From: Nitrosopumilus sp.
Lineage (GTDB): Archaea; Thermoproteota; Nitrososphaeria; Nitrososphaerales; Nitrosopumilaceae
DNA length: 64,000 nt
Assembly (NCBI GenBank): GCA_965214775.1
Contig: OZ243974.1
Coordinates: 2,769,657-2,833,656, forward strand
Direction: 5' to 3'
Under the pieces are notes generated by a model. It had not been told where the DNA came from and made no database searches. It was given only the letters and a program-made list of their open reading frames with translations. The stretch's first letter is position 1; the number at the start of each line of letters is the position of its first letter. Positions 13,719 to 64,000 of the stretch are shown here, piece by piece. The position numbers and the translations under genes were made by a program.

Positions 13719-14141
13719 ATGTCCATAATTGAGACCGTTGCAGACGTTGACAATACGTTTCTATCAAGAAGAGAGATTACATGTAATTTTGCCGGACTGG
13801 CAGGCAAGCTCAAGAGAACAGAGGCAGCAGACATGATTGCCAGAGAGTTCAAGCTTGACGGCAAGGCAATCATCATCCCAATGAGGCTAAAGACCCATGT
13901 TGGAAGACCGGTTGTTACCGGAACCTTTTATGTATATGAAGACGAGGGGCTGGCAAAAAAACACGTGAATCCGACAATTTTCTCAAGACTGGAAAAAAGC
14001 AAGGCAAAAGATGCCAAACCAGAATCCACAGAAGACAAGAGCGGCTCTGCCGAAGGGGTCACAGAAAAGAAAGGAGGAGGAGAGGAGGAGAAGGAGAAAG
14101 AAGGTGAGAAGGAAGACAAGAAGGAGGAGAAGTCCGAATAA
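13719..14141 (+). CDS. rps24e: 30S ribosomal protein S24e with charged C-terminal extension
   Basis: NTFLSRREI, LKTHVGRPVVTGTFYVYED; directly followed by rps27ae. Confidence 0.88.
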   Translation: MSIIETVADVDNTFLSRREITCNFAGLAGKLKRTEAADMIAREFKLDGKAIIIPMRLKTHVGRPVVTGTFYVYEDEGLAKKHVNPTIFSRLEKSKAKDAKPESTEDKSGSAEGVTEKKGGGEEEKEKEGEKEDKKEEKSE

Positions 14142-14314
14142 TGGCCGGCAAGAAGGGCTCCAGTCCAAGAATTCACACGTATTTTAAAATAGACGGAGAC
14201 AAAATTTCACGGCTTAAGAAAATTTGTGCCAGGTGTGGAAAGGGAGTCTACATGTCAGAACACAAAGACAGACGCGCATGCGGCAAATGTACCGACACGG
14301 AATTCATTCAATAA
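14141..14314 (+). CDS. rps27ae: 30S ribosomal protein S27ae (57 aa, absent from the ORF track)
   Basis: My translation: MAGKKGSSPRIHTYFKIDGDKISRLKKICARCGKGVYMSEHKDRRACGKCTDTEFIQ; two CxxC pairs; TAATG coupling. Confidence 0.92.
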   Translation: MAGKKGSSPRIHTYFKIDGDKISRLKKICARCGKGVYMSEHKDRRACGKCTDTEFIQ

Positions 14315-14332
14315 GTCAGTCTTCAAAGTCAG

Positions 14333-14409
14333 CAGACTTTATGCGTAATTACTTGAATGAGATGAATCTGTTTGCAACAATCCTAGTTTTGAACCGATTA
14401 CGCAGTCTA
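14333..14409. mobile_element. About 77-bp MITE with ISL2-like ends; second copy at 53980-54058
   Basis: AGACTTTATGCGTAAT...CCGATTACGCAGTCTA matches the termini of 1843-3379. Confidence 0.75.
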
Positions 14410-14519
14410 GTGCCCGTAGATGCATCTGATCATCAAATGCTTCAAGAACTTTTGCCAGTCAGCACGGTTCATTGCGCAGGCCGGTATTGCCTTATCGAAA
14501 CCGCAGGCAGAGGCAGTTC

Positions 14520-14772
14520 ATATATGCAGTTTTGATTTTATATTGGTTATGTCGTTTTCAATCCTCTCGAACCTAGAGTCAAGGCTCTTGTATTGTCTGA
14601 TGAATTTTTTGTTTCTGTCCAAACCCCACAGTTTCTAATCACTGTGCAGCTCTTCAAGCAGTTCATCAAAGGTCACGATTTTTCGATCTTCAGGATGTGC
14701 ATAAAAATCTTTGATGTCCTTGATTTCTTCATCAGATAACGGAGGGGATTCTATCTGTTCTGTATCAGACAT
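14520..14772 (-). pseudogene. Small acidic antitoxin-like ORF (14772-14635, 45 aa) followed by a truncated RelE/ParE-like toxin remnant
   Basis: MSDTEQIESPPLSDEEIKDIKDFY...IVTFDELLEEL, then WGLDRNKKFIRQYKSLD ending early in a stop. Confidence 0.5.
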
Positions 14773-14862
14773 GTTTCTTGTGTTACTCCATCATAAAAAA
14801 AGGATTAGGGTCAAGGGGGGTTGTCCAAAAAATTTCCTCAAAATGACCGCCAAGCTTATAGA

Positions 14863-15349
14863 CGCTATATGAAATCTTATCAGTATCCTGTGATATACAA
14901 TTACTGTTGGGCCTGAGAGTCGATATGATCTTACCATGTACAAGGGTGTCTTATAGACTGACTCGCAACAGCAGGCGGAAAGCAATGTACCGCGCAGACG
15001 GTGAATGGGAGATTCCGCTCGGATCAGGCATTTTGATCAAAAAGGAGGTGATAACATGATCAACGTAGGAATAGACGTACACAAAAAGACATGCGTTGCA
15101 GCAGTAAAGGACGACTCTGGCAAGCTGCTAGAGCGATCCAAGTTTGAGAACAGCGTTTCTACAACAACGAATTTTGCAACAGACCTCAAGGCACAATACC
15201 CTGGACAGCTGTCAATCATGACAGTATGCGAGTCTACTGTCACGCAGAGAAAGTATAAGAGGATGCATCGCTTAGCAACATTGTCCTGATTCGGAACACT
15301 GAGCTGGCAAGGGTCCACGGTAGGATTTGGCACGATTTCATATGGGAGA
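14863..15349 (+). mobile_element. 487-bp internally deleted IS110-family element; ORF 15056-15289 is RuvC N-terminus fused to the extreme C-terminus
   Basis: MINVGIDVHKKTCVAAVKD...VCEST (IS110 DEDD start); AGGAGGTG RBS; AGA at both junctions; subterminal IR ATATGAAATC/GATTTCATAT; near-identical copy 61634-62120. Confidence 0.88.
14905..15030 (+). ncRNA. Predicted bridge-RNA-like guide (target-binding and donor-binding internal loops)
   Basis: Stems GAGTCG/TGACTC with TACC/GGTG enclose ATATGATCT and TCTTATAGA; stems GCGGAA/TTCCGC with TACCG/CGGTG enclose AGCAATG and AATGGGAGA; closing GCCTGA/TCAGGC; loops match flanks and element end. Confidence 0.75.
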
Positions 15350-16740
15350 TCATGGGCGTAATACGCCGAAAACAATTTTGATCAGCCGATCCTGGCTATT
15401 TCAATGAGTAACGACAGAAAGAACACAGAATACTACCGACTCTACGAGCAAAAGCGCAGGCAGGAGAGCCCCCGCAAGAAGAAGGCAAGGAAGAACCTGG
15501 GAAAGATCGTGCGCAGGGTGGCCAAGAAGATGGCAGACAAAACGGGAATCGATGCCAAACTTGCATGGTCTGCCATACGCATTGCGATCCTCAGGATCGA
15601 GAACCACCTGTCCTACAGGATCATGGCCACGCATCTGGAGACAAATCCGGACGATCTCAGGAGGTGCGGCCTAGACCACACACTCTCCAAGTCCACCATA
15701 CACAACAGGGTGAAGATGCTCTGGGAAATGGGCAAGGACTTTATGGACGAGGTCGTGCTGGCCATGTCAGACGGCAAGCGCATAGCGGACCTGCACGGCG
15801 ACTCGACGGGGTTTGGCCTCCGCAAGTACAAGAGCTGGCATCATGCCAAGTACGGGGAGATGACAGGACACGACTTTGCAAAGCTGCATAGTAGGCGCAG
15901 TAGGAGGCAGGATACTGTCATTTGAGGCCACACCTGGCACATCGGCCGACTCGCCGGAGTTTGCCCGCATGTTTTCCCGCATTCCAAAGGGAGGATACGG
16001 CATAGTGGCGCTGGATTCGGCATACGATTCGTACAAAAACTGCGAGTTGATTGCAAAAAGCGGCCGCGGACCTGCCATAAAGCCGGCAAAGGGAAACGAA
16101 AAGCCTTGGCAGGTTCAGCGCCCGGGCCAGGATGCTGCAGTGGCTGCGCGACAGGCAGACGAATTCTGGCGCGCCTACCACAAGAGGAGCCAGGCAGAGT
16201 CCCTGTTCTCGGCAATGAAGGAAAGGACTGGATCCGTCCTGCGCTCAAAGCTGGACGGAACCATTACAGTCGAGCTGTTCGCTTGCGTGTTGTGCTACAA
16301 CCTTACGGTATAATTTTTATCATAATTCCGTACTGTTGTTGGACTGCAGCAGCACTACCGTAAGGTATGGCCCGCATGGATATTTACGTTGCCTTTTGCG
16401 CATGTCCGGCCGAAAATGTCCCGTTCTGCATCTGAATTTACATACATACGGGGGCAGACTGGCAGATTATGGCAGCCTCTTGGAAATTTTTTGGACAACC
16501 CCGGATTGCACAGTCTTTCCAAAAGTAACCCAAAAAACGGCTCCAAATTCGAAACAATCTAAGATGAGTCACATGCAGATCCATATACTGCCGTCTGCAC
16601 CATCCCTAATTTGGAATCATCTTGAATACTTCATCTGTAGTGACGACTGAAAGTTTTCGAGCACCTATGGCATGAAATATGCAGGAAGACGCTTTTTGAT
16701 GATCAAAGACTTTCAGCCACCACTATAGGAACTACTGGCA

Positions 16741-17319
16741 TTATGGAATTGTAATTTTTAGAGGTTCGATTTCATCCAATCCACGTAGTCCTAAAAACCC
16801 TTTGTCAAAAGTATACAATTCGTCACATTGAGAGTCATGTGCTATGATGGCGTGTAAAATATCTGCAAACATGACTTGTTTATAGTTGATGCCAACATGA
16901 TCTGCACTGCACTGTTCATATTTTTTATGAAATCGTTGAGACCCTATGCTTTTTTCCATTAGTTCCAATCCACGAGCAAGGACATCGTCTAGTCTGGCAC
17001 TTCCTCCTTTTTCTAGTTTGACGTTTGGCAGCCTCATTATGGTACTAGTTGTGGATTGATAAATCTTGCTGGCCTTGTCCTTTACATAGGCGTCTTGTTT
17101 TTTTTCTGGAATTCTGATCATCTCTTCTTTATTTTTACTAACAAGCATGCGAATCACTCCCATCAATTCGGTTAGAGCAAGAATGGAAATCACTCCTGCA
17201 TATCTGCCCTGTGAGATTCCGTCAATTACCAATTTTGCACGACGGTGCTGATCGGGTTCCTTTTTTGACCCTATCGTATAAGCAATTATGATGTTGGTGT
17301 CTAGGTAGATTTTATCCAT
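16741..17319 (-). CDS. PIN-domain (VapC-like) nuclease
   Basis: IYLDTNIII, SILALTEL, ADILHAIIA, LYTFDKGF acidic PIN motifs. Confidence 0.88.
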   Translation of the reverse strand: MDKIYLDTNIIIAYTIGSKKEPDQHRRAKLVIDGISQGRYAGVISILALTELMGVIRMLVSKNKEEMIRIPEKKQDAYVKDKASKIYQSTTSTIMRLPNVKLEKGGSARLDDVLARGLELMEKSIGSQRFHKKYEQCSADHVGINYKQVMFADILHAIIAHDSQCDELYTFDKGFLGLRGLDEIEPLKITIP

Positions 17320-17777
17320 TACGTGTCCCTCATAGTTCTAACCGCATCTACGGCATCGACGGCCTGGTCTCCGATCTGGTCTCCGATAATGCCAGAGAGC
17401 TGTTTGAATGCGTTGGAGTCAAGTTTTGGAATTTCCTTGAGTCCTATGAGCCTACAGAGCATTTCGCGGGTATCTCTGTCATTGAATTTGAATTCGCTGA
17501 CATGTTCTGTTGACTCGATGATTGAGAGATCCGGTGGGCTCGTGTCGTTATCATATGGTATGACGTCCTTGGAGGGGCTTGCACCGTCATCGTATTGTAT
17601 GATGTGGTTTGATAGTGTGATGAAGAAAGGCGCCAGGAAGTAGATCGGCCGTTCCGGCGGTTTGTCGATCTCATCCAAGTCCTTGGCGCTCATCAGGCTG
17701 CCGAGGTGTTGTTTACTTCCAGAACCGCTCATGTGTGTCATAGCATCCACATCTGTATCATGCGGGGTGCTGAACAA
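17319..17777 (-). CDS. Putative antitoxin-like protein with acidic low-complexity N-terminus
   Basis: Translationally coupled to the PIN gene; C-terminus LSGIIG...DAVDAVRTMRD resembles VapB tails. Confidence 0.5.
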   Translation of the reverse strand: MFSTPHDTDVDAMTHMSGSGSKQHLGSLMSAKDLDEIDKPPERPIYFLAPFFITLSNHIIQYDDGASPSKDVIPYDNDTSPPDLSIIESTEHVSEFKFNDRDTREMLCRLIGLKEIPKLDSNAFKQLSGIIGDQIGDQAVDAVDAVRTMRDT

Positions 17778-18192
17778 GGTTTGCAGTCCGCATTCCTACA
17801 AGCTCCCTTGTCTCCTTGATTCTGTTGTAGGCATTGAGAAAGTCAACGGCGGATGCGTCGTCCCGTAAAAATATAGACAGCGAAAAGCCGAAAAATCGCT
17901 TGCTGTCATTTGTTATTATCTTGTGCCTGATGTCCAGAGCCACCAGCGTATGCTCCAATTCATACACGATTCCACTTTTGGCCGACTCGTCCATCTGAAA
18001 GAATTTTTCTGTTATTTTGTCATTGAAGGGATGTGTGGCCTGCAGCTCGACCAGATCTGATTTGCCAAGCGCCACTATGCTGTCCTTTTTTACAAGCCGG
18101 GCATATCGGTAGGATGGAGGGTATTCCTTCATTCTTATGTGTTGAATATTTGCATTGTCCATCAACTTGCAAATGTCGGACTCTTCCAACAA
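17758..18192 (-). CDS. Hypothetical protein, possibly DUF2299/T3SS-chaperone-like fold
   Basis: 144 aa alpha/beta pattern with C-terminal helix DFLNAYNRIKETRELV; overlaps the next gene; fold is my inference. Confidence 0.5.
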   Translation of the reverse strand: MLEESDICKLMDNANIQHIRMKEYPPSYRYARLVKKDSIVALGKSDLVELQATHPFNDKITEKFFQMDESAKSGIVYELEHTLVALDIRHKIITNDSKRFFGFSLSIFLRDDASAVDFLNAYNRIKETRELVGMRTANLVQHPA

Positions 18193-18280
18193 GATATGTC
18201 GCGTGCGATATTATAAAAGCATATACAACTGAGGGGGGTTGTCCAAAAAATTTCCTCAAAATGACCGCCAAGCTTATAGA

Positions 18281-19038
18281 CGCTATATGAAATCTTATCA
18301 GTATCCTGTAATATACAATTATCGTTGGGCCTGAGAGTCGATGTGATCTTACCATGTACAAGGGTGTTTTATAGACTGACTCGTAACAGCAGGCGGAAAG
18401 CAATATACCGCGTAGACGGTGAATGGGAGATTCCGCCCGGATCAGGCATTTTGATCAAAAAGGAGGTGATAACATGATCAACTCGGCCACAGCAGTACGA
18501 AACGACTCAAGACTTGGTTCTATATATGAAAGGATAAGAAAGAGACGAGGATGGCAAAAGGCAAAGATTGTAGTTGCAAGGCACATGCTGGAGATAATCT
18601 GGCACATGCTGACCACCGGGGAGGAGTACCGCACTCAGAGCAAGACTCTCACGCAGAGAAAGTATAAGAGAATGCATCGCATAGCAACATTGTCCTGATT
18701 CGGAACATCACGCTGGCAAGGGTCCACGGTAGGATTAGGTACGATTTCATATGGGAGACTGACTCGTAACAGCAGGCGGAAAGCAATATACCGCGTAGAC
18801 GGTGAATGGGAGATTCCGCCCGGATCAGGCATTTTGATCAAAAAGGAGGTGATAACATGATCAACTCGGCCACAGCAGTACGAAACGACTCAAGACTTGG
18901 TTCTATATATGAAAGGATAAGAAAGAGACGAGGATGGCAAAAGGCAAAGATTGTAGTTGCAAGGCACATGCTGGAGATAATCTGGCACATGCTGACCACC
19001 GGGGAGGAGTACCGCACTCAGAGCAAGACTCTCACGCA
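18281..19038 (+). mobile_element. IS110 mini-element keeping only the C-terminal recombinase part (18281-18758, ORF 18474-18698) plus a partial tandem copy (18759-19038)
   Basis: Same left and right ends as 14863-15349; YERIRKRRGWQKAKIVVARHMLEIIWHML is the typical IS110 C-terminus. Confidence 0.85.
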
Positions 19039-20079
19039 TGTTTCATATGAAAATTAGTTCCGCCCCTCATTAGTATCCTTCTCCATCCATTTGGGGTCGC
19101 TTTTCCTGATCGCTTCTGTGGCCTCCCGGCTCCGGAACGCCATTCTGGGAGTCTCTGCACGCTTGATGTCAAGCGACCAGTGCGTCCTGTGCTCGTTGTA
19201 GAACTCGATGAACTCGTCTACCTTCTCAAAGTGCGTCAGCTCCTTCTCAAGCGTTCTGAACCACCTCTCCAACTTGCCGTTGGTCTGGGGGTGATGCGGA
19301 CGCGAGTTGAGCAGGACGATGCTGTGCTCTAGCAGCTCGTTCTCAAACAGCGTGGGCGTCCAGCTGCCCCTTGGGGTACCGCGCCTGGCTGACGTAAAGC
19401 AGCTGCCGTTGTCTGAGAGTATCTGGGCTGGCGTCCCGAACTCTTTGATGGCCTTGCGCAGCACCAGGACTGCGTTCTCCGAGGTCGCGCGCTCAAAGAC
19501 GCCAAATCCGGTTATGCACCGCGAGGAATCGTCAAGATATGCCACCAGATTGAGTTTTTCTAGGCGTGAATCCTTCATTTCGTGCCAGTCCACGTGCCAC
19601 ATTGCATTGGAGTACTTGCGCTCATAGCGCAGCCACTTGAGCTGTCTGGGTCTGGCAGGCGAGCCGTCCGTTATTCCCTCGGCCTTCATGATCCTGTATA
19701 CTGCATGGTAGCTTATCTGCCTGCCTGCGGCCCTCATGCGCAATGCCAGCCTCTCCACACCCGACGGCATCCGCGCATATGCGTCAAGGACCGCCTCCAC
19801 ATCCACGGGATCCGTGTCCATGCAGGGCCTTCCTGCCCCGCTCCGTGGCAGGACTGTGCCGGAGCTGCGGAATCTGGCCCATATCTTCCTGACATACCTG
19901 TCGCTGATGCCCAGCTCCCGGGCTATCTGCTTTGCAGGCACGCCCTTTTTCCTCTGCTTTTCTATGTACCGGAGCGACTTTTCCTCCAATTTTTTCCTCA
20001 CGTTTTTTGATCGGTACAGCCTAAAATAATCCTTCAAAGTACGCCTGATCTTAGGCGGAACTAATTTTCGTATGATAGA
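19039..20079 (-). mobile_element. IS481-family element; transposase 19054-20037
   Basis: 1041 bp, near-identical to 60243-61283; WHVDW, ILSDNG and PQTNGKLERW; no target duplication here. Confidence 0.92.
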
Positions 20080-20875
20080 ATGCTCTGGGAAATGGGCAAG
20101 GACTTTATGGACGAGGTCGTGCTGGCCATGTCAGACGGCAAGCGCATAGCGGACCTGCACGGCGACTCGACGGGGTTTGGCCTCCGCAAGTACAAGAGCT
20201 GGCATCATGCCAAGTACGGGGAGATGACAGGACACGACTTTGCAAAGCTGCATAGTAGGCGCAGTAGGAGGCAGGATACTGTCATTTGAGGCCACACCTG
20301 GCACATCGGCCGACTCGCCGGAGTTTGCCCGCATGTTTTCCCGCATTCCAAAGGGAGGATACGGCATAGTGGCGCTGGATTCGGCATACGATTCGTACAA
20401 AAACTGCGAGTTGATTGCAAAAAGCGGCCGCGGACCTGCCATAAAGCCGGCAAAGGGAAACGAAAAGCCTTGGCAGGTTCAGCGCCCGGGCTAGGATGCT
20501 GCAGTGGATGCGTGACAGGCAGACGAATTCTGGCGCGCCTACCACAAGAGGAGCCAGGCAGAGGCCCTGCTCTCGGCAATGAAGGAAAGGACTGGATCCG
20601 TCCTGCGCTCAAAGCTGGACGGAACCATTACAGTCGAGCTGTTCGCTCGCGTGTTGTGCTACAACCTTACGGTATAATTTTTAACATAATTCCGTACTGT
20701 TGTTGGACTGCAGCAGCACTACCGTAAGGTATGGCCCGCATGGATATTTACGTTGCCTTTTGCGCATGTCCGGCCGAAAATGTCCCGTTCTGCATCTGAA
20801 TTTGCATACATACGGGGGCAGACTGGCAGATTATGGCAGCCTCTTGGAAATTTTTTGGACAACCCCGGGTCAAGG

Positions 20876-26832: not shown

Positions 26833-27448
26833 CTATATCCATGTGTCGGGTTTATAAGAATTCCACGCGCAACGGTGTTGTGAGGCATAGCATTGGCTGG
26901 GGGTCTCTTCCTGACAATCCCAAAATGAAGGTCGGACATTTATCTATACGAGGATCTCCCTCAGCACCATTCTTCATCCATTTGTCAGAACCATTCTGCA
27001 GTTACTAAACGAGGATCTCCCTCAACTAGGTCAACGCAGATTAAAGTTCTAACTGTAATGATGATGATATTCATTTCACACACATATATCTCCTATGCCT
27101 TGATTGAAGGTCATCCACTTCTTTAGCATCCAGTATGATATGCGCAGCAGCTTGGATGCTGCAACCACTGCGGACTTGGACCTTTCCCCTCTTCTTTACA
27201 AACATCTTCTTTATCTCGCTTTCCTTGTTGCTTATTTTTGTGTTCCTCAGAACCTTCCTGTTCTTGTCCATCACCGCGACCTGGATGGACTCCTTGTGCA
27301 CGTCCAGGCCGACATACTGCTGCTGCTGTTGCCGTTGCACCGCCTTTGATTTCACACATATCCTCTTTTTTGGGGCAATCTGTTTGTTTGCATCGCAATT
27401 TATTTTGGCATCATCTGAATTTCGTTTTTGAGACACACATGGTTACTA
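26833..27448 (-). mobile_element. Deleted IS110/IS1111-like element: RuvC N-terminal fragment (27071-27436) plus structured downstream non-coding region
   Basis: YVGLDVHKESIQVAVMD; subterminal IR CCATGTGT/ACACATGG; CTA at both junctions. Confidence 0.65.
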
Positions 27449-59978: not shown

Positions 59979-60242
59979 AGCTACAGCAGGTCACCCCCCC
60001 CCCCACAAACGATCAGGGCGACATTGGCAGGGGTGTCCTGCCCCATAACGGCATGCAAGGTAACAGGTCGGGCTCTGGAAGTTCAGGCGTGAGTTTTGCC
60101 ATCTTGGGGAGGCCTTCCATTCAGATTTGCGCCTGAAATCAGAAGCAGCATCCAGAGTCAGACCCTTTACATGCAAATCATTCATTCTGATGTCATGATT
60201 AAATCAGGTGCGGTTATTAAAAGTAGTGAAATTTGTAGTTTG

Positions 60243-61283
60243 TGTTTCATATGAAAATTAGTTCCGCCCCTCATTAGTATCCTTCTCCATCCATTTGGGG
60301 TCGCTTTTCCTGATCGCTTCTGTGGCCTCCCGGCTCCGGAACGCCATTCTGGGAGTCTCTGCACGCTTGATGTCAAGCGACCAGTGCGTCCTGTGCTCGT
60401 TGTAGAACTCGATGAACTCGTCTACCTTCTCAAAGTGCGTCAGCTCCTTCTCAAGCGTTCTGAACCACCTCTCCAACTTGCCGTTGGTCTGGGGGTGATG
60501 CGGACGCGAGTTGAGCAGGACGATGCTGTGCTCTAGCAGCTCGTTCTCAAACAGCGTGGGCGTCCAGCTGCCCCTTGGGGTACCGCGCCTGGCTGACGTA
60601 AAGCAGCTGCCGTTGTCCGAGAGTACCTGGGCCGGCGTCCCGAACTCTTTGATGGCCTTGCGCAGCACCAGGACTGCGTTCTCCGAGGTCGCGCGCTCAA
60701 AGACGCCAAATCCGGTTATGCACCGCGAGGAATCATCAAGATATGCCACCAGATTGAGTTTTTCTAGGCGTGAATCCTTCATTTCGTGCCAGTCCACGTG
60801 CCACATTGCATTGGAGTACTTGCGCTCATAGCGCAGCCACTTGAGCTGTCTGGGTCTGGCAGGCGAGCCGTCCGTTATTCCCTCGGCCTTCATGATCCTG
60901 TATACTGCATGGTAGCTTATCTGCCTGCCTGCGGCCCTCATGCGCAATGCCAGCCTCTCCACACCCGACGGCATCCGCGCATATGCGTCAAGGACCGCCT
61001 CCACATCCACGGGATCCGTGTCCATGCAGGGCCTTCCTGCCCCGCTCCGTGGCAGGACTGTGCCGGAGCTGCGGAATCTGGCCCATATCTTCCTGACATA
61101 CCTGTCGCTGATGCCCAGCTCCCGGGCTATCTGCTTTGCAGGCACGCCCTTTTTCCTCTGCTTTTCTATGTACCGGAGCGACTTTTCCTCCAATTTTTTC
61201 CTCACGTTTTTTGATCGGTACAGCCTAAAATAATCCTTCAAAGTACGCCTGATCTTAGGCGGAACTAATTTTCGTATGATAGA
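60243..61283 (-). mobile_element. IS481-family element, intact; transposase 60258-61241; 14-bp target duplication
   Basis: AAATTTGTAGTTTG at 60229-60242 and 61284-61297. Confidence 0.93.
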
Positions 61284-61356
61284 AAATTTGTAGTTTGTTG
61301 CATAACTCCGACTAGAGCCAAGTCAGTCCGCCCGGATCACAACCGGCTCCAAGTTC

Positions 61357-61584
61357 CTACACGGCAGCCACCGCCTCTGCGATCCACTTGTTGTACAGCC
61401 ATATCCTCAGATTTACTTCCTGCACTATATTGGACCACTTGAGGGCCATTACGCACTCGCCGAACATGCGCTTTATGGATGATATTACGATCTCGACGAT
61501 CCATCTGCTGCCAAAGCCGACCGTGCTCTTCCAGTACCGCAGGTTCTCCTGTCTTTCCTCCTTTGAGAGATCACCCACAGGCAC
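61357..61584 (-). pseudogene. IS5-family transposase C-terminal fragment
   Basis: WKSTVGFGSRWIVEIVISSIKRMFG; truncated at the IS66 end. Confidence 0.75.
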
Positions 61585-63620
61585 GTAAGAGTTTACCCCT
61601 TACCTATTTGGTGAATTCTTTCTGACCACCCGATCTCCCATATGAAATCGTACCTAATCCTACCGTGGACCCTTGCCAGCTCAGTGTTCCGAATCAGGAC
61701 GATGTTGCTAAGCGATGCATCCTCTTATACTTTCTCTGCGTGACAGTGGACTCGCATACTGCCATGATTGACAGCTGTCCAGGGTATTGTGCCTTGAGGT
61801 CTGTTGCAAAATTCGTTGTTGTAGAAACGCTGTTCTCAAACTTGGATCGCTCTAGCAGCTTGCCAGAGTCGTCCTTTACTGCTGCAACGCATGTCTTTTT
61901 GTGTACGTCTATTCCTACGTTGATCATGTTATCACCTCCTTTTTGATCAAAATGCCTGATCCGGGCGGAATCTCCCATTCACCGTCTGCGCGGTACATTG
62001 CTTTCCGCCTGCTGTTGCGAGTCAGTCTATAAGACACCCTTGTACATGGTAAGATCATATCGACTCTCAGGCCCAACAGTAATTGTATATCACAGGATAC
62101 TGATAAGATTTCATATAGCGTCTATAAGATAGTACCTAGGAAAATGCATGTCATCAGGCTCGGAGGTCAAGATACTGCGCGACGAGATTGCACGTCTCAT
62201 AGCCGAGTGCCGAAAGAATGAGAAAACCATCGCCGATCTGCAGCAGGTAGTAGTCAAAGATGCCACAGAGAAGGCCGAGCTTGCAACACAGGTCGTGCTG
62301 CTGACGGCAGAAAACCAGCAGCTCAAACAGCACATCAAATATTACGAGAACCCGCACACCCCCTCCTCGCAGAACTCGATTCCTACCAGACAGAAAAAGA
62401 CTGCTGCTGCAAAGGCATCAGGCAACGTACCGGCATCTGCAAAGGCAAAGCCGGGCCGCAGGCAGGGACACAAGGGAGTATCACACAAGAGAAAGCCGAC
62501 TGAGTTTGTAAAGCACTGCCCCAAAAAGTGCGACAAGTGCAACAGCACCAACATGAAGAAACCCGAAAAGTTGTTCTCAAAGACCGTGACTGAGATCCCC
62601 AAGAAGCCCAAACCGGTCACGACAGAGCACACCGCATACAAACGCGAATGCGCCGACTGCGGCCACGTGTGTATCGAGGATGACAGGGACTGGAACGTGC
62701 CTGAAACCGAGTTTGGACCAAACATTACGGGGATGATAACCTCAATGCACATGGCACCTGCCTCCATACAGGCAACGGCCACAATGTGCTCTGAGATCCT
62801 AGACATGGATGTCTCAGAGGCAGGCGTGTTGCAGTGCCTGAGGGCCTGCACCAAGGCAATAAAGCCCAGCGTAAAGGGTATCAAGCAGGCCATCAAGGAT
62901 TCTGATTATCTGCACATTGACGAGACTGCCATGCCATACAACGGCAGGACGGCCCGCATATGGGTAATAGTGGGCAAGAACAAGGACGGCTCCACGACCG
63001 GCGTCCACACGCTGGCCGCACCCAGCAGGGCCAGGGTCGTAGTGGATACGAACTTTCCGTATTATGATAAACCAGTTACAGTTGATGGGTACGGCGTATA
63101 TGTCGTATTCAAGATCAGGCAGTGGTGCTGGGCACACATACTCCGGGAGGCCAGGGACGCCGGCAAGACTTCCCGGCAGGCCCACGCGCTATATGATGCC
63201 CTCAAGAAAAAATTTCTTTTTGCCAAGGGGCTGGGGCCACCACCACCACCGGAGGAGAAGAAGAACGGCGTCAGGCAGCAACAACACGACATGCTGGTAG
63301 TCGAGACACGCGCGCTGGCCGTAGCATTCAGGGAGGCAGGTTGCAAAAAATTTGCCACAAAGCTTGAGAATGCCTCAGAATACCTGTACACGTTCGTGCT
63401 GTATCCGGGCATGGAGCCCACCAACAACCTGGCCGAGCGCATGCTGAGGCCGTCCGTAATTGCGCGCAAGATATTCCAGGGACTCCGTACCATGGAGGGC
63501 ATGGAGATGTTCACCGTACTGATGACATGCACGATGAACTGGCGCGCCCAGGGTTGCAACGTGAGTGAGATGGTCGCCAAGACCCTGACTGGAAACGTCG
63601 CCTGAGGGGTAAACTCTTAC
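61585..63620 (+). mobile_element. Single-ORF IS66-family element with intact transposase 62148-63605 and an IS110 mini in its left end
   Basis: Perfect GTAAGAGTTTACCCC / GGGGTAAACTCTTAC; HIDET, VDG, CWAHILR, PTNNLAERMLR. Confidence 0.92.
61634..62120 (-). mobile_element. 487-bp IS110 mini-element with predicted bridge-RNA region (about 61953-62078)
   Basis: Near-identical reverse complement of 14863-15349; TCT at both junctions. Confidence 0.88.
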
Positions 63621-64000
63621 CATCTGCGTTCCTCTCCATCCATTTTGGGTTCTTCCTCCTGATCGCTTCCGTTGCCTCCTTGCTTCTAAACGCCAGAAGC
63701 GGCGTCTCACAGTTGGCAATGTCAAGCGAAAAGTGGGGGCCTTCTCTCGTTGTAATAGTCCACGTACTGCCTCAGGCCGTCATAATGCCCTATCTCCTCC
63801 TCGATGGTGCGATGGAGCCTCTCCAGCTTGCCGTTGGTCTGCGGGTGGCAGGGCCCGGTGTTTATCAGGATGATGTCCCGTGTAAGCAGCTCCTCCTCAA
63901 AGAGCGTGGGCTGCCACGTCCCCCCGCCGCCGATGCGGCCTTTGGAGGCTGCTGCCTTTTTTCTGCCGTTCTGTCCTACAAAGCACGAGCCATTGTCAGA
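63621..64000 (-). pseudogene. IS481-family transposase C-terminal fragment running off the window
   Basis: SDNGSCF, FEEELL, HPQTNGKLERLHRTIEEE, NPKWMER on the minus strand. Confidence 0.8.

Follow-up and report, generated by a model that had tools for sequence, protein, structure and literature searches.

Mini-elements of about 0.5 kb in the archaeon Nitrosopumilus sp. (contig OZ243974.1) have lost the recombinase of an IS110-family insertion sequence (IS) and have kept what reads as its bridge-RNA guide. We conclude that these minis are non-autonomous, guide-carrying derivatives that very probably transposed after the deletion, with an enzyme supplied in trans, and we lean towards their own guide as the one used for insertion. 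The window, that is, the whole 64,000-nucleotide stretch analysed here, is the final 64 kb of the 2.83-Mb single-contig genome, whose rRNAs have archaeal SSU and LSU models as their best Rfam matches and thereby identify the host as archaeal. The element that opened the analysis, at window positions 14860–15349, is an internally deleted, non-autonomous derivative of an IS110-family insertion sequence. To judge from its sequence, its left end is a bridge-RNA gene with a target-binding and a donor-binding module. That a guide gene survives an internal deletion is unsurprising; what is notable is that the mini lineages have their own, different, site-matched addresses.

A blastn search of the mini against its own genome returned relatives in three classes, of 490 bp (type A), 481–487 bp (type B) and about 1339 bp (full length). 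Their positions, in window coordinates unless the genome is named, are as follows.

14860–15349, + strand: type-A copy 1, in the host repeat ISx.
61634–62123, − strand: type-A copy 2, near the end of an IS66-family element, ISy (transposase open reading frame (ORF) 62148–63605).
Genome 2726222–2726711, outside the window: type-A copy 3, in ISx.
18278–18758, + strand: type-B mini of 481 bp, in another copy of ISx, at the same target as type A at 14860.
Genome 181545 (+) and 808417 (−): the other type-B minis.
Genome 1122588–1124124 (−) and window 18756–20080: IS-carrying type-B minis, one of them complete with both ends and at a different target.
Genome 2030270, 2746628 and 2751244 (−): intact elements, with recombinase genes at genome 2030483, 2746841 and 2751031 (−), respectively.

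The type-A copies are mutually 98.4–99.6% identical. Type B comprises three complete copies at three different targets, plus one IS-carrying copy and one partial copy. The three mini-elements that the original prediction placed in the window are all present; they represent two deletion types (A twice, B once) and not one.

The full-length parent postulated in that prediction is found in the same genome, as three intact copies of about 1339 bp that each encode a 359-residue recombinase. The protein matches Pfam DEDD_Tnp_IS110 (PF01548; 97.9 bits, 6e-28) and Transposase_20 (PF02371; 81.7 bits, 5e-23). Aligned with the IS621 transposase (8wt6_A), it has all five catalytic residues in matching positions, namely the D of GID, the E of CE(S/A)T, both aspartates of the D..D pair and the Tnp-domain serine. 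As an IS110-family member, the parent is new but ordinary. Intact copies and minis have the same termini and the same donor-loop strands, with a single G-to-A change in the 3′ strand of one intact copy. Because these strands and termini are identical, the parent recombinase should be compatible with the mini RNA.

The features of the type-A element at 14860 and its immediate surroundings, all on the + strand, are listed below.

14816–14859: left ~44 bp of ISx; the last 8 nt, AAGCTTAT (14852–14859), are the left target half.
14860–14861: left core copy, AG.
14862–15346: element proper, 485 bp (left end, recombinase remnant, right end), plus one extra core copy.
14867–14876: left subterminal inverted repeat, ATATGAAATC, reverse complement of 15334–15343.
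14917–14964: target-binding module; outer stem 14917–14922/14959–14964, inner hairpin stem 14932–14935/14945–14948.
14923–14931: loop-1 5′ strand, ATATGATCT, whose reverse complement is the core (AG) followed by the right target half.
14949–14958: loop-1 3′ strand, TCTTAT-AG-AC, left target half and core, followed by 2 nt identical to nt 1–2 of the element.
14974–15018: donor-binding module; outer stem ~14975–14979/15014–15018, inner stem 14988–14992/14999–15003.
14980–14987: loop-2 5′ strand, AAGCAATG, part-complementary to nt 2–6 of the left end.
15004–15013: loop-2 3′ strand, AATGGGAG-AT, right terminus and core, followed by 2 nt identical to nt 1–2 of the right target half.
15056–15289: remnant ORF of 77 residues, recombinase residues 1–61 fused in frame to the last ~16.
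15238/15239: deletion junction.
15334–15343: right subterminal inverted repeat, GATTTCATAT, as read from the sequence.
15347–15348: right core copy, AG.
15349–16503: rest of ISx, starting with the 7-nt right target half, ATCATGG.

The type-A sequence aligns to coordinates 1–379 and 1226–1339 of the full-length element. The 846-bp deletion (coordinates 380–1225) has spared both termini and the 10-bp inverted repeat ATATGAAATC / GATTTCATAT, which sits 5 and 3 nt inboard of them. Its junction is one and the same in all three copies, with microhomology of at most 1–2 nt. The remnant ORF scores 26 bits against DEDD_Tnp_IS110 (cut-off 29), covers profile positions 1–48 alone, and lacks the D..D pair and the serine, so that three of the five catalytic residues are gone. 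The type-B deletion removes coordinates 209–1060, with the same junction in all three complete copies, between the 9-bp near-identical direct repeats ATGATCAAC and ATGGTCAAC; its ORF consists of MIN followed in frame by residues 285–359, everything except the tail being lost. With these losses, neither remnant can function as a recombinase. Near full-length coordinate ~1227, at ..TCACGCAGAG, three breakpoints fall within a few bases of one another: the right edge of the type-A deletion (window 15239), the start of a solo right-end fragment (genome 2635682, −) and the insertion of a rve-integrase IS in a type-B copy (genome 1123746, −).

The insertions are precise. ISx is a 1154-bp repeat with copies elsewhere in the genome and an ORF matching Pfam DDE_Tnp_1; the mini at 14860 lies about 44 bp inside its end, and the copy at 61634–62123 lies near the end of ISy. 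Uninterrupted paralogues of ISx read ...AAGCTTAT AG ATCATGGGCG (three agree fully and a fourth, at 1176771, has diverged in the left half), and those of ISy, in the orientation of the element, read ...TATCTTAT AG ATCGGGTGG (five shown). The empty targets that had been reconstructed are therefore real. All copies of the element start ACGCTATATG and finish CATATGGG, with AG at either side. The paralogues run straight through the site, and AG is present once when it is empty and at both junctions when it is occupied, indicating precise insertion. The core proposed earlier, AGA (TCT on the other strand), is one base too long: the core is AG (CT). In the RNA frame the loops have the form N7-CT in the 5′ strand and N6-AG in the 3′ strand. 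Nearly every copy has CT at the end of its loop-1 5′ strand. The third base differs from target to target, being T at the sites of the intact copies, and so belongs to the right target half rather than to the core.

The fold of the left end was analysed in an alignment of 23 left ends, comprising 9 variants from the same genome and 14 from 12 other genomes of the family. RNAalifold returned 15 pairs, which make up both stems of module 1 and the inner stem of module 2; nine of them carry compensatory changes. By RNAalifold and pair counts, the two helices of the target module are 96.7% and 97.5% paired, with changes on both sides in six pairs. The inner stem of the donor module is 97.9% paired with three compensatory pairs; its outer stem, paired by eye, reaches 60%, with a one-column offset in half of the rows owing to two length variants. 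A covariance model built from the 23 rows matches 31 places in the genome. In a model-based alignment of 31 distinct rows, which is fitted to the model and hence biased towards it, 89.4% of the cells pair and 12 of 19 pairs show changes on both sides; none of 500 shuffles reached this level of pairing, and controls with slid partners were 30–50% paired. The minis score at least as high (129–131 bits) as the intact copies (123–127 bits). The compensatory changes support the two predicted stem–internal loop–stem units, and the modelled fold is supported by covariation, not by the stability of a single sequence.

Both strands of the second loop correspond to the ends of the element. As originally noticed, ATGGGAGA at 15005–15012 is the same as the right terminus at 15342–15349; the ATGGGAG of this strand equals 15342–15348 and is conserved across relatives. 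The other strand had been credited with a weak AGC match to the left end. In the copy at 14860 only 3 of 5 positions pair, and this proves to be a poorer local case of a real contact: over 13 distinct left ends, 47 of 65 positions pair between the loop-2 5′ strand and nt 2–6 of the left end, compared with 28.8 in shuffles (0 of 100,000 as high). The strand thus covaries with the left terminus in the relatives.

Re-reading confirmed the loop-1 strands at 14923–14931 (ATATGATCT) and 14949–14957 (TCTTATAGA), and these were compared with the flanks. Over 36 rows from this genome and its relatives, 152 of 180 positions agree between the loop-1 3′ strand and the left flank. With one row for each distinct flank, 84 of 100 agree, about 35 being expected, and none of 100,000 shuffles was as high. 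The strand follows the flank as it changes, through TTAT, TTTAT, CAAAC, TCAGT, GTATG, GTAAG and TTAC in this genome and CAAAC, CCGGC, GTAAT, TGAAC, TTACC, TTC(C/T)TG, TAAGT, CCGT and TGGG in others. The test covers copies with a located left terminus and a clear register. Left out were the copies at genome 369480, 1269545 and 2343105 (left terminus unlocated), a false motif match at 2473594, the relatives L050 and L051 (left terminus not identifiable) and L038 (register unclear, TG at the left junction), and L037, which is nested in the guide DNA of another copy, where a match would be trivially perfect. The two nucleotides after AG in the loop-1 3′ strand resemble a handshake guide: they equal nt 1–2 of the element at 24 of 26 positions, a level reached by 23 of 100,000 shuffles, and read AC in most copies and AT, AA or CC in relatives.

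The right target half was read by eye. The type-A guide fits 5 of 7 positions at ISx (plus one G·U) and 4 of 7 at ISy (plus two G·U), B1 fits 4 of 7, B2 fits 5 of 7 (plus two G·U), and the intact copies fit 6 and 5 of 7. B2, the type-B copy at genome 808417 (−), has a different guide, CAAAC-AG / ATTAAAT, at the site CAAAC-AG-ATTGAGT. In the relatives, four of the nine elements read have 4–6 contiguous matches, two are partial (the second copy in G061, and G083b) and three are weak or miss (G100a, G083a and G052). The only long copy of a distant 'G' subfamily, at genome 403763, is interrupted by another repeat, which makes its right flank unusable. Overall, the loop-1 strands match the left and right target halves around the core.

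Together these data suggest how a mini could move. The recombinase from one of the three intact copies would bind a bridge RNA of the family, the donor-binding loop being alike in the two kinds of copy. For IS621, a trans-supplied bridge RNA is functional (PMC11208160). The complex would recognise the ends of the mini and excise or copy it as a circle in which right end, core and left end are joined; excision is reported to need donor-arm recognition alone (bioRxiv 10.64898/2026.08.31.748434). For type A the fitting RNA would be the one encoded by the mini, directing insertion into the terminal regions of ISx and ISy, so that the mini would supply the address and its intact relatives the enzyme. 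This scheme presumes that a bridge RNA is transcribed from the mini and that a circle forms.

Movement after the deletion is indicated by the junction itself. The same type-A junction occurs in three copies at two unrelated target types, ISx and ISy, each cut precisely, as the prediction of trans mobilisation held. Of 490 positions, 2 distinguish the ISy copy from the ISx copy outside the window and 8 distinguish the two ISx copies; the ISy copy is thus nearer to one ISx copy than the ISx pair are to each other, and passive co-copying with the host repeat fails to explain this. To ask which guide fits these targets, we scanned the genome for the guide motif and scored each match over 13 positions. 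The scan returned 28 matches, 27 of them guide copies of the family and one a chance match. The best fit to both ISx and ISy was that of the type-A guides (10 of 13), equalled at ISy by a truncated relic at genome 1252183, which fits 9–10 of 13. Type-B guides fit 8–9 of 13, and those of the intact copies 3 of 13 at ISx and 5–6 of 13 at ISy. The ATATGATCT strand is confined in this genome to the three type-A minis. On this reading the intact copies would provide the enzyme, and the address would be that of a copy without recombinase, in the simplest case the mini's own.

A second IS110 lineage, found in a Pfam scan of the genome and encoding a protein about 33% identical to that of the first, presents a similar picture. 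It has five intact copies of 1375–1379 bp and nine minis, eight of 582 bp (several of them 100% identical) and one diverged and 23 bp longer.

Genome 915045, 1166531, 1211389 (−), 1787517, 2398115 (−), 2410137 (−), 2666232 and 922773: second-lineage copies.
26836–27446, − strand: the diverged second-lineage mini.

Guide-like hairpins lie in the ~238-nt right non-coding end, and the subterminal inverted repeats are 8–9 bp long. All nine minis have a mini-specific guide hexamer (GATGTA in eight, GATGTT in one), compared with AACCTA in all five intact copies. Six minis occupy CAACAT... sites (CAACATC in five) and three intact copies occupy A(T/C)AGGTTA... sites; where minis and intact copies differ in the guide, at three positions, the flanks differ at the three corresponding positions. 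Three of these minis lie in one and the same repeat, eight uninterrupted termini of which show the empty site, ...G-TA-CAAC(A/T)TCAGG. The two remaining minis and the two remaining intact copies lie directly after the 3′ guide strands of another copy. On this sequence evidence, the recent burst of minis appears to have used an address carried by no enzyme-encoding copy, which makes the own-guide reading more likely for the first family too.

Several observations weigh against the view that type-A minis were moved by the present intact copies with guides of their own. The intact copies are just ~90–92% identical to type A over the common left part. The right-half matches are short, with 3–5 contiguous Watson–Crick pairs. 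Two type-A copies out of three occupy the same position in copies of a single host repeat, with which they could have been co-copied. The guide of relic 1252183 fits nearly equally well, and this relic, or a lost full-length parent, could be the source of the guide. Of the folding checks, the covariance model and the compensatory pairs bear out the RNA, and the single-sequence minimum-free-energy fold does not, being no stabler than shuffles (z = 0.25). An Rfam search of 14700–15500 with E up to 10 gave just a chance 8-bit match to a viral element, the content of Rfam in bridge-RNA families not being established. No circle joint was found over 14500–15700 in the contigs of four public runs (X1, X5, X6 and X7); contigs drop rare forms, so this is uninformative either way. 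These contigs are short pieces broken at repeats, with joints of the empty-ISx and type-B types, both of which also exist as paralogues in the genome. Among the listed public runs holding the stretch, none is recorded as RNA. Finally, the copy at genome 1690581 fits its own left flank poorly (2 of 5), and the copies at genome 2169386 and at L049 of genome G080 carry a loop-1 3′ strand that misfits their left flank. The last two suggest that the guide a copy carries is not always the guide that was used, as action in trans predicts. At both 2169386 (+) and L049, a right-half guide of the intact-copy type is combined with a left-half guide of the mini type, in a left flank like that of the intact copies; this would result from guide exchange after the insertion event or from insertion guided by the RNA of another copy.

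An alternative is that the minis were mobilised in trans with their own guide as a passive passenger, a lost or truncated full-length parent having given both enzyme and RNA. The closest relatives of type A are indeed truncated relics, among them 1252183, which is 94% identical, retains residues 1–136 and has the nearly equivalent guide described above; in an IS110-group element, retention of the left-end RNA gene follows automatically from any internal deletion that leaves the ends intact; and two copies have guides that misfit their sites. However, no present recombinase-encoding copy has the type-A guide, even though two type-A copies are identical at all but 2 of 490 positions. In the second lineage, where several minis are 100% identical and their guide is found in none of the five intact copies, every full-length parent would have to have been lost very recently. 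We therefore consider this alternative unlikely. Very improbable, and the least credible of the alternatives, is that the minis never moved as such and arose through recurrent deletion in place, gene conversion or passive copying with host repeats. The type-B deletion, lying between near-identical direct repeats, could recur, two type-A copies and one type-B copy occupy the same position in copies of one host repeat, and the region is rich in nested rearrangements. Against this stand the type-A junction, identical at two unrelated targets with almost no microhomology, the closeness of the ISy copy to one of the ISx copies, the common substitutions that distinguish type-B copies from intact ones, and the presence of second-lineage minis at no fewer than four unrelated types of site (at least four).

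It is also conceivable, if distinctly improbable, that the minis are kept as regulators of the family, through an RNA decoy that titrates the recombinase or through inhibitory remnant peptides, with mobility being secondary; this would be compatible with the explanation we prefer. All three mini types are in-frame fusions, of 77 residues in type A (window 15056–15289), 74–78 in type B (window 18474–18698) and 90 in the second lineage (genome 1787677–1787949, an N-terminal part joined to the C-terminal tail), and guide copies (31 model matches) far outnumber intact recombinase genes (3). However, three in-frame events have a chance of about 1 in 27, which is merely suggestive, the conservation of the remnant ORFs is known from near-identical copies alone, the peptides are predicted, and the match between site and guide is explained by mobility and not by regulation. 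Based on these considerations, we favour mobilisation of the minis in trans after the deletion, with the address most simply their own.

Rearrangement joints also occur within the guide-coding DNA. The DNA that encodes the 3′ loop strands mimics the left target half (or the donor end) plus core and serves as a recombination site. At window 18756–18865 the right end of type B plus AG is joined to position 96 of another copy, directly after the loop-1 3′ strand. A second type-B copy runs from window 18756 onward, starting within its own loop-1 3′ strand; the covariance model matches at 18318–18444 (131.5 bits) and 18706–18827 (61.6 bits). In G061 (L037 1041–1138), a full copy is nested after positions 1–99 of another. 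At genome 1348576–1348672 (−), a left-end stub (1348609) ends just after TTCAGTAG and is followed by TTCCGATT, the right half predicted by its own guide. These joints are consistent with half-match recombination, as described in bioRxiv 10.64898/2026.08.31.748434. A tandem of one full and one partial copy lies at genome 2749474–2751230; an explanatory half-site was looked for there and none was found.

The window segments 14000–20500 and 60000–64000 consist of insertion sequences nested in one another: DDE_Tnp_1 (ISx), IS66-family (485-residue ORF, 62148–63605) and rve-integrase elements (327-residue ORFs, 19054–20037 and 60258–61241). An rve-type IS of ~1044 bp lies within type-B minis at about the same place (recombinase residue ~350) in two occurrences, and the 1.5-kb composite of type-B mini and rve IS may itself have been copied. 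Both IS110 lineages target the termini of other repeats. The target of the intact first-family copies is the left terminus of another repeat, ..CAGTA(G/C) TTCC... These three copies have 14 nt of left flank in common, GTAACCATATCAGT, whose first 10 nt are identical to the left terminus of the second IS110 lineage; 16 uninterrupted copies of the target lack this flank.

DNA related to the full-length element is present in 16 of 100 other genomes of the family. Within the genus itself, related DNA occurs, at a weak level, in only one of five genomes. A left end from another genus is the closest, at 94%, a hint of intergeneric transfer. G080, which belongs to another genus of the same family, has in two places a left end of 94% identity and, after it, a diverged recombinase remnant with an internal deletion (L049 1537–1744 and the twin locus C2:1917107–1917670). 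No recognisable right terminus was found for this relative, and it was left out of the mini count. A search of phage records with the element gave no match.

Bridge-RNA recombination has so far been described as a single package, in which enzyme and guide are encoded together. If the minis spread by a borrowed enzyme, natural bridge RNAs work in trans, an archaeon being a case in point; a parasite of a parasite can evolve target specificity; and estimates of IS110 activity from recombinase genes miss most guides, here 31 model matches against 3 intact genes. Mini-specific guides fit sites that none of the guides of autonomous copies fit. We tentatively propose a broader reading, in which the minis are guide-carrying satellites that have shed the enzyme, evolve their own address independently and redirect the recombinase of their relatives to sites that no autonomous copy targets, and in which they have arisen in two unrelated IS110 lineages, one with a left-end and one with a right-end guide. 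If so, a bridge RNA acting in trans would be a recurrent natural mode, with minis that outnumber and out-diversify their helpers. The ~0.5-kb repeats account for many of the genome's insertions at the ends of other IS elements, and the copies form a natural guide/target series, with several retargeted loops on one scaffold.

IS1111 members insert at the termini of other mobile elements, as both lineages do here, and Siddiquee et al. are said to have described, in 2024, IS1111-group elements with a seekRNA in the right end (PMC11187229). The second lineage resembles that group in having its guide in the right end and subterminal inverted repeats (Durrant et al., PMC11208160). Unlike in the IS1111 group, the guide of the first family lies in the left end, and the minis of both lineages are without a recombinase.

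With the recombinase gene as reference, the core here reads AG, as is also reported for ISPpu9 (PMC12288879), and the 3′ loop strands correspond in sense to the left flank and the right end; relative to IS621 this would be a mirror arrangement. The first family is otherwise like IS621 and other IS110 elements (PMC11208160, PMC11208158) in the DEDD and serine recombinase of the parent, in its precise insertion, in a guide RNA encoded by the left non-coding end, ahead of the recombinase gene and in its direction, and in two internal loops, one for the target halves and one for the element ends, each pairing with a 2-nt core, CT (= AG). In the RNA frame, too, CT closes the 5′ loop strand, and AG in the 3′ strand precedes two handshake-like nucleotides that match the non-cognate DNA; handshake guides beside the core-binding positions were described by Hiraizumi et al. 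2024 (PMC11208158). Unlike IS621, the host is an archaeon and the mini has no recombinase at all. The 10-bp subterminal inverted repeat compares with 2–3 bp in the IS110 group and 7–17 bp in the IS1111 group (Durrant et al., PMC11208160).

Archaeal IS110 recombinases are known, 662 of them in one survey, and IS110-like transposases were noted in soil ammonia-oxidising archaea in 2012. In agreement with the novelty claimed in the original prediction, the literature searched gave no account of recombinase-less IS110 derivatives with their own bridge RNA, nor of archaeal ones; the supplements of PMC11208160 and PMC12288879 might hold related cases. In the text available to us, the closest published counterpart of the mini is MITEPpu9, a derivative of ISPpu9 in Pseudomonas putida (PMC12288879). 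It is likewise small and multicopy and has kept the end sequences of its family; its authors propose that transposase acts in trans, and ISPpu9 is flanked by AG dinucleotides (PMC12288879). Unlike the mini, MITEPpu9 is bacterial, targets REP sequences and carries the gene for the small RNA Ssr9; the available description places the bridge RNA in the 5′ untranslated region (UTR) of tnp and does not describe a guide of the MITEPpu9 element itself (PMC12288879). Compact IS110 elements of ~800 bp without a 5′ UTR imply a bridge RNA supplied in trans and thus a natural split of the components (bioRxiv 10.64898/2026.08.14.744561), and elements with truncated recombinases were inactive in the assay of that study. 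The two splits are reciprocal: the compact elements have kept the recombinase and lost the RNA, whereas the mini has kept the RNA and lost the recombinase.

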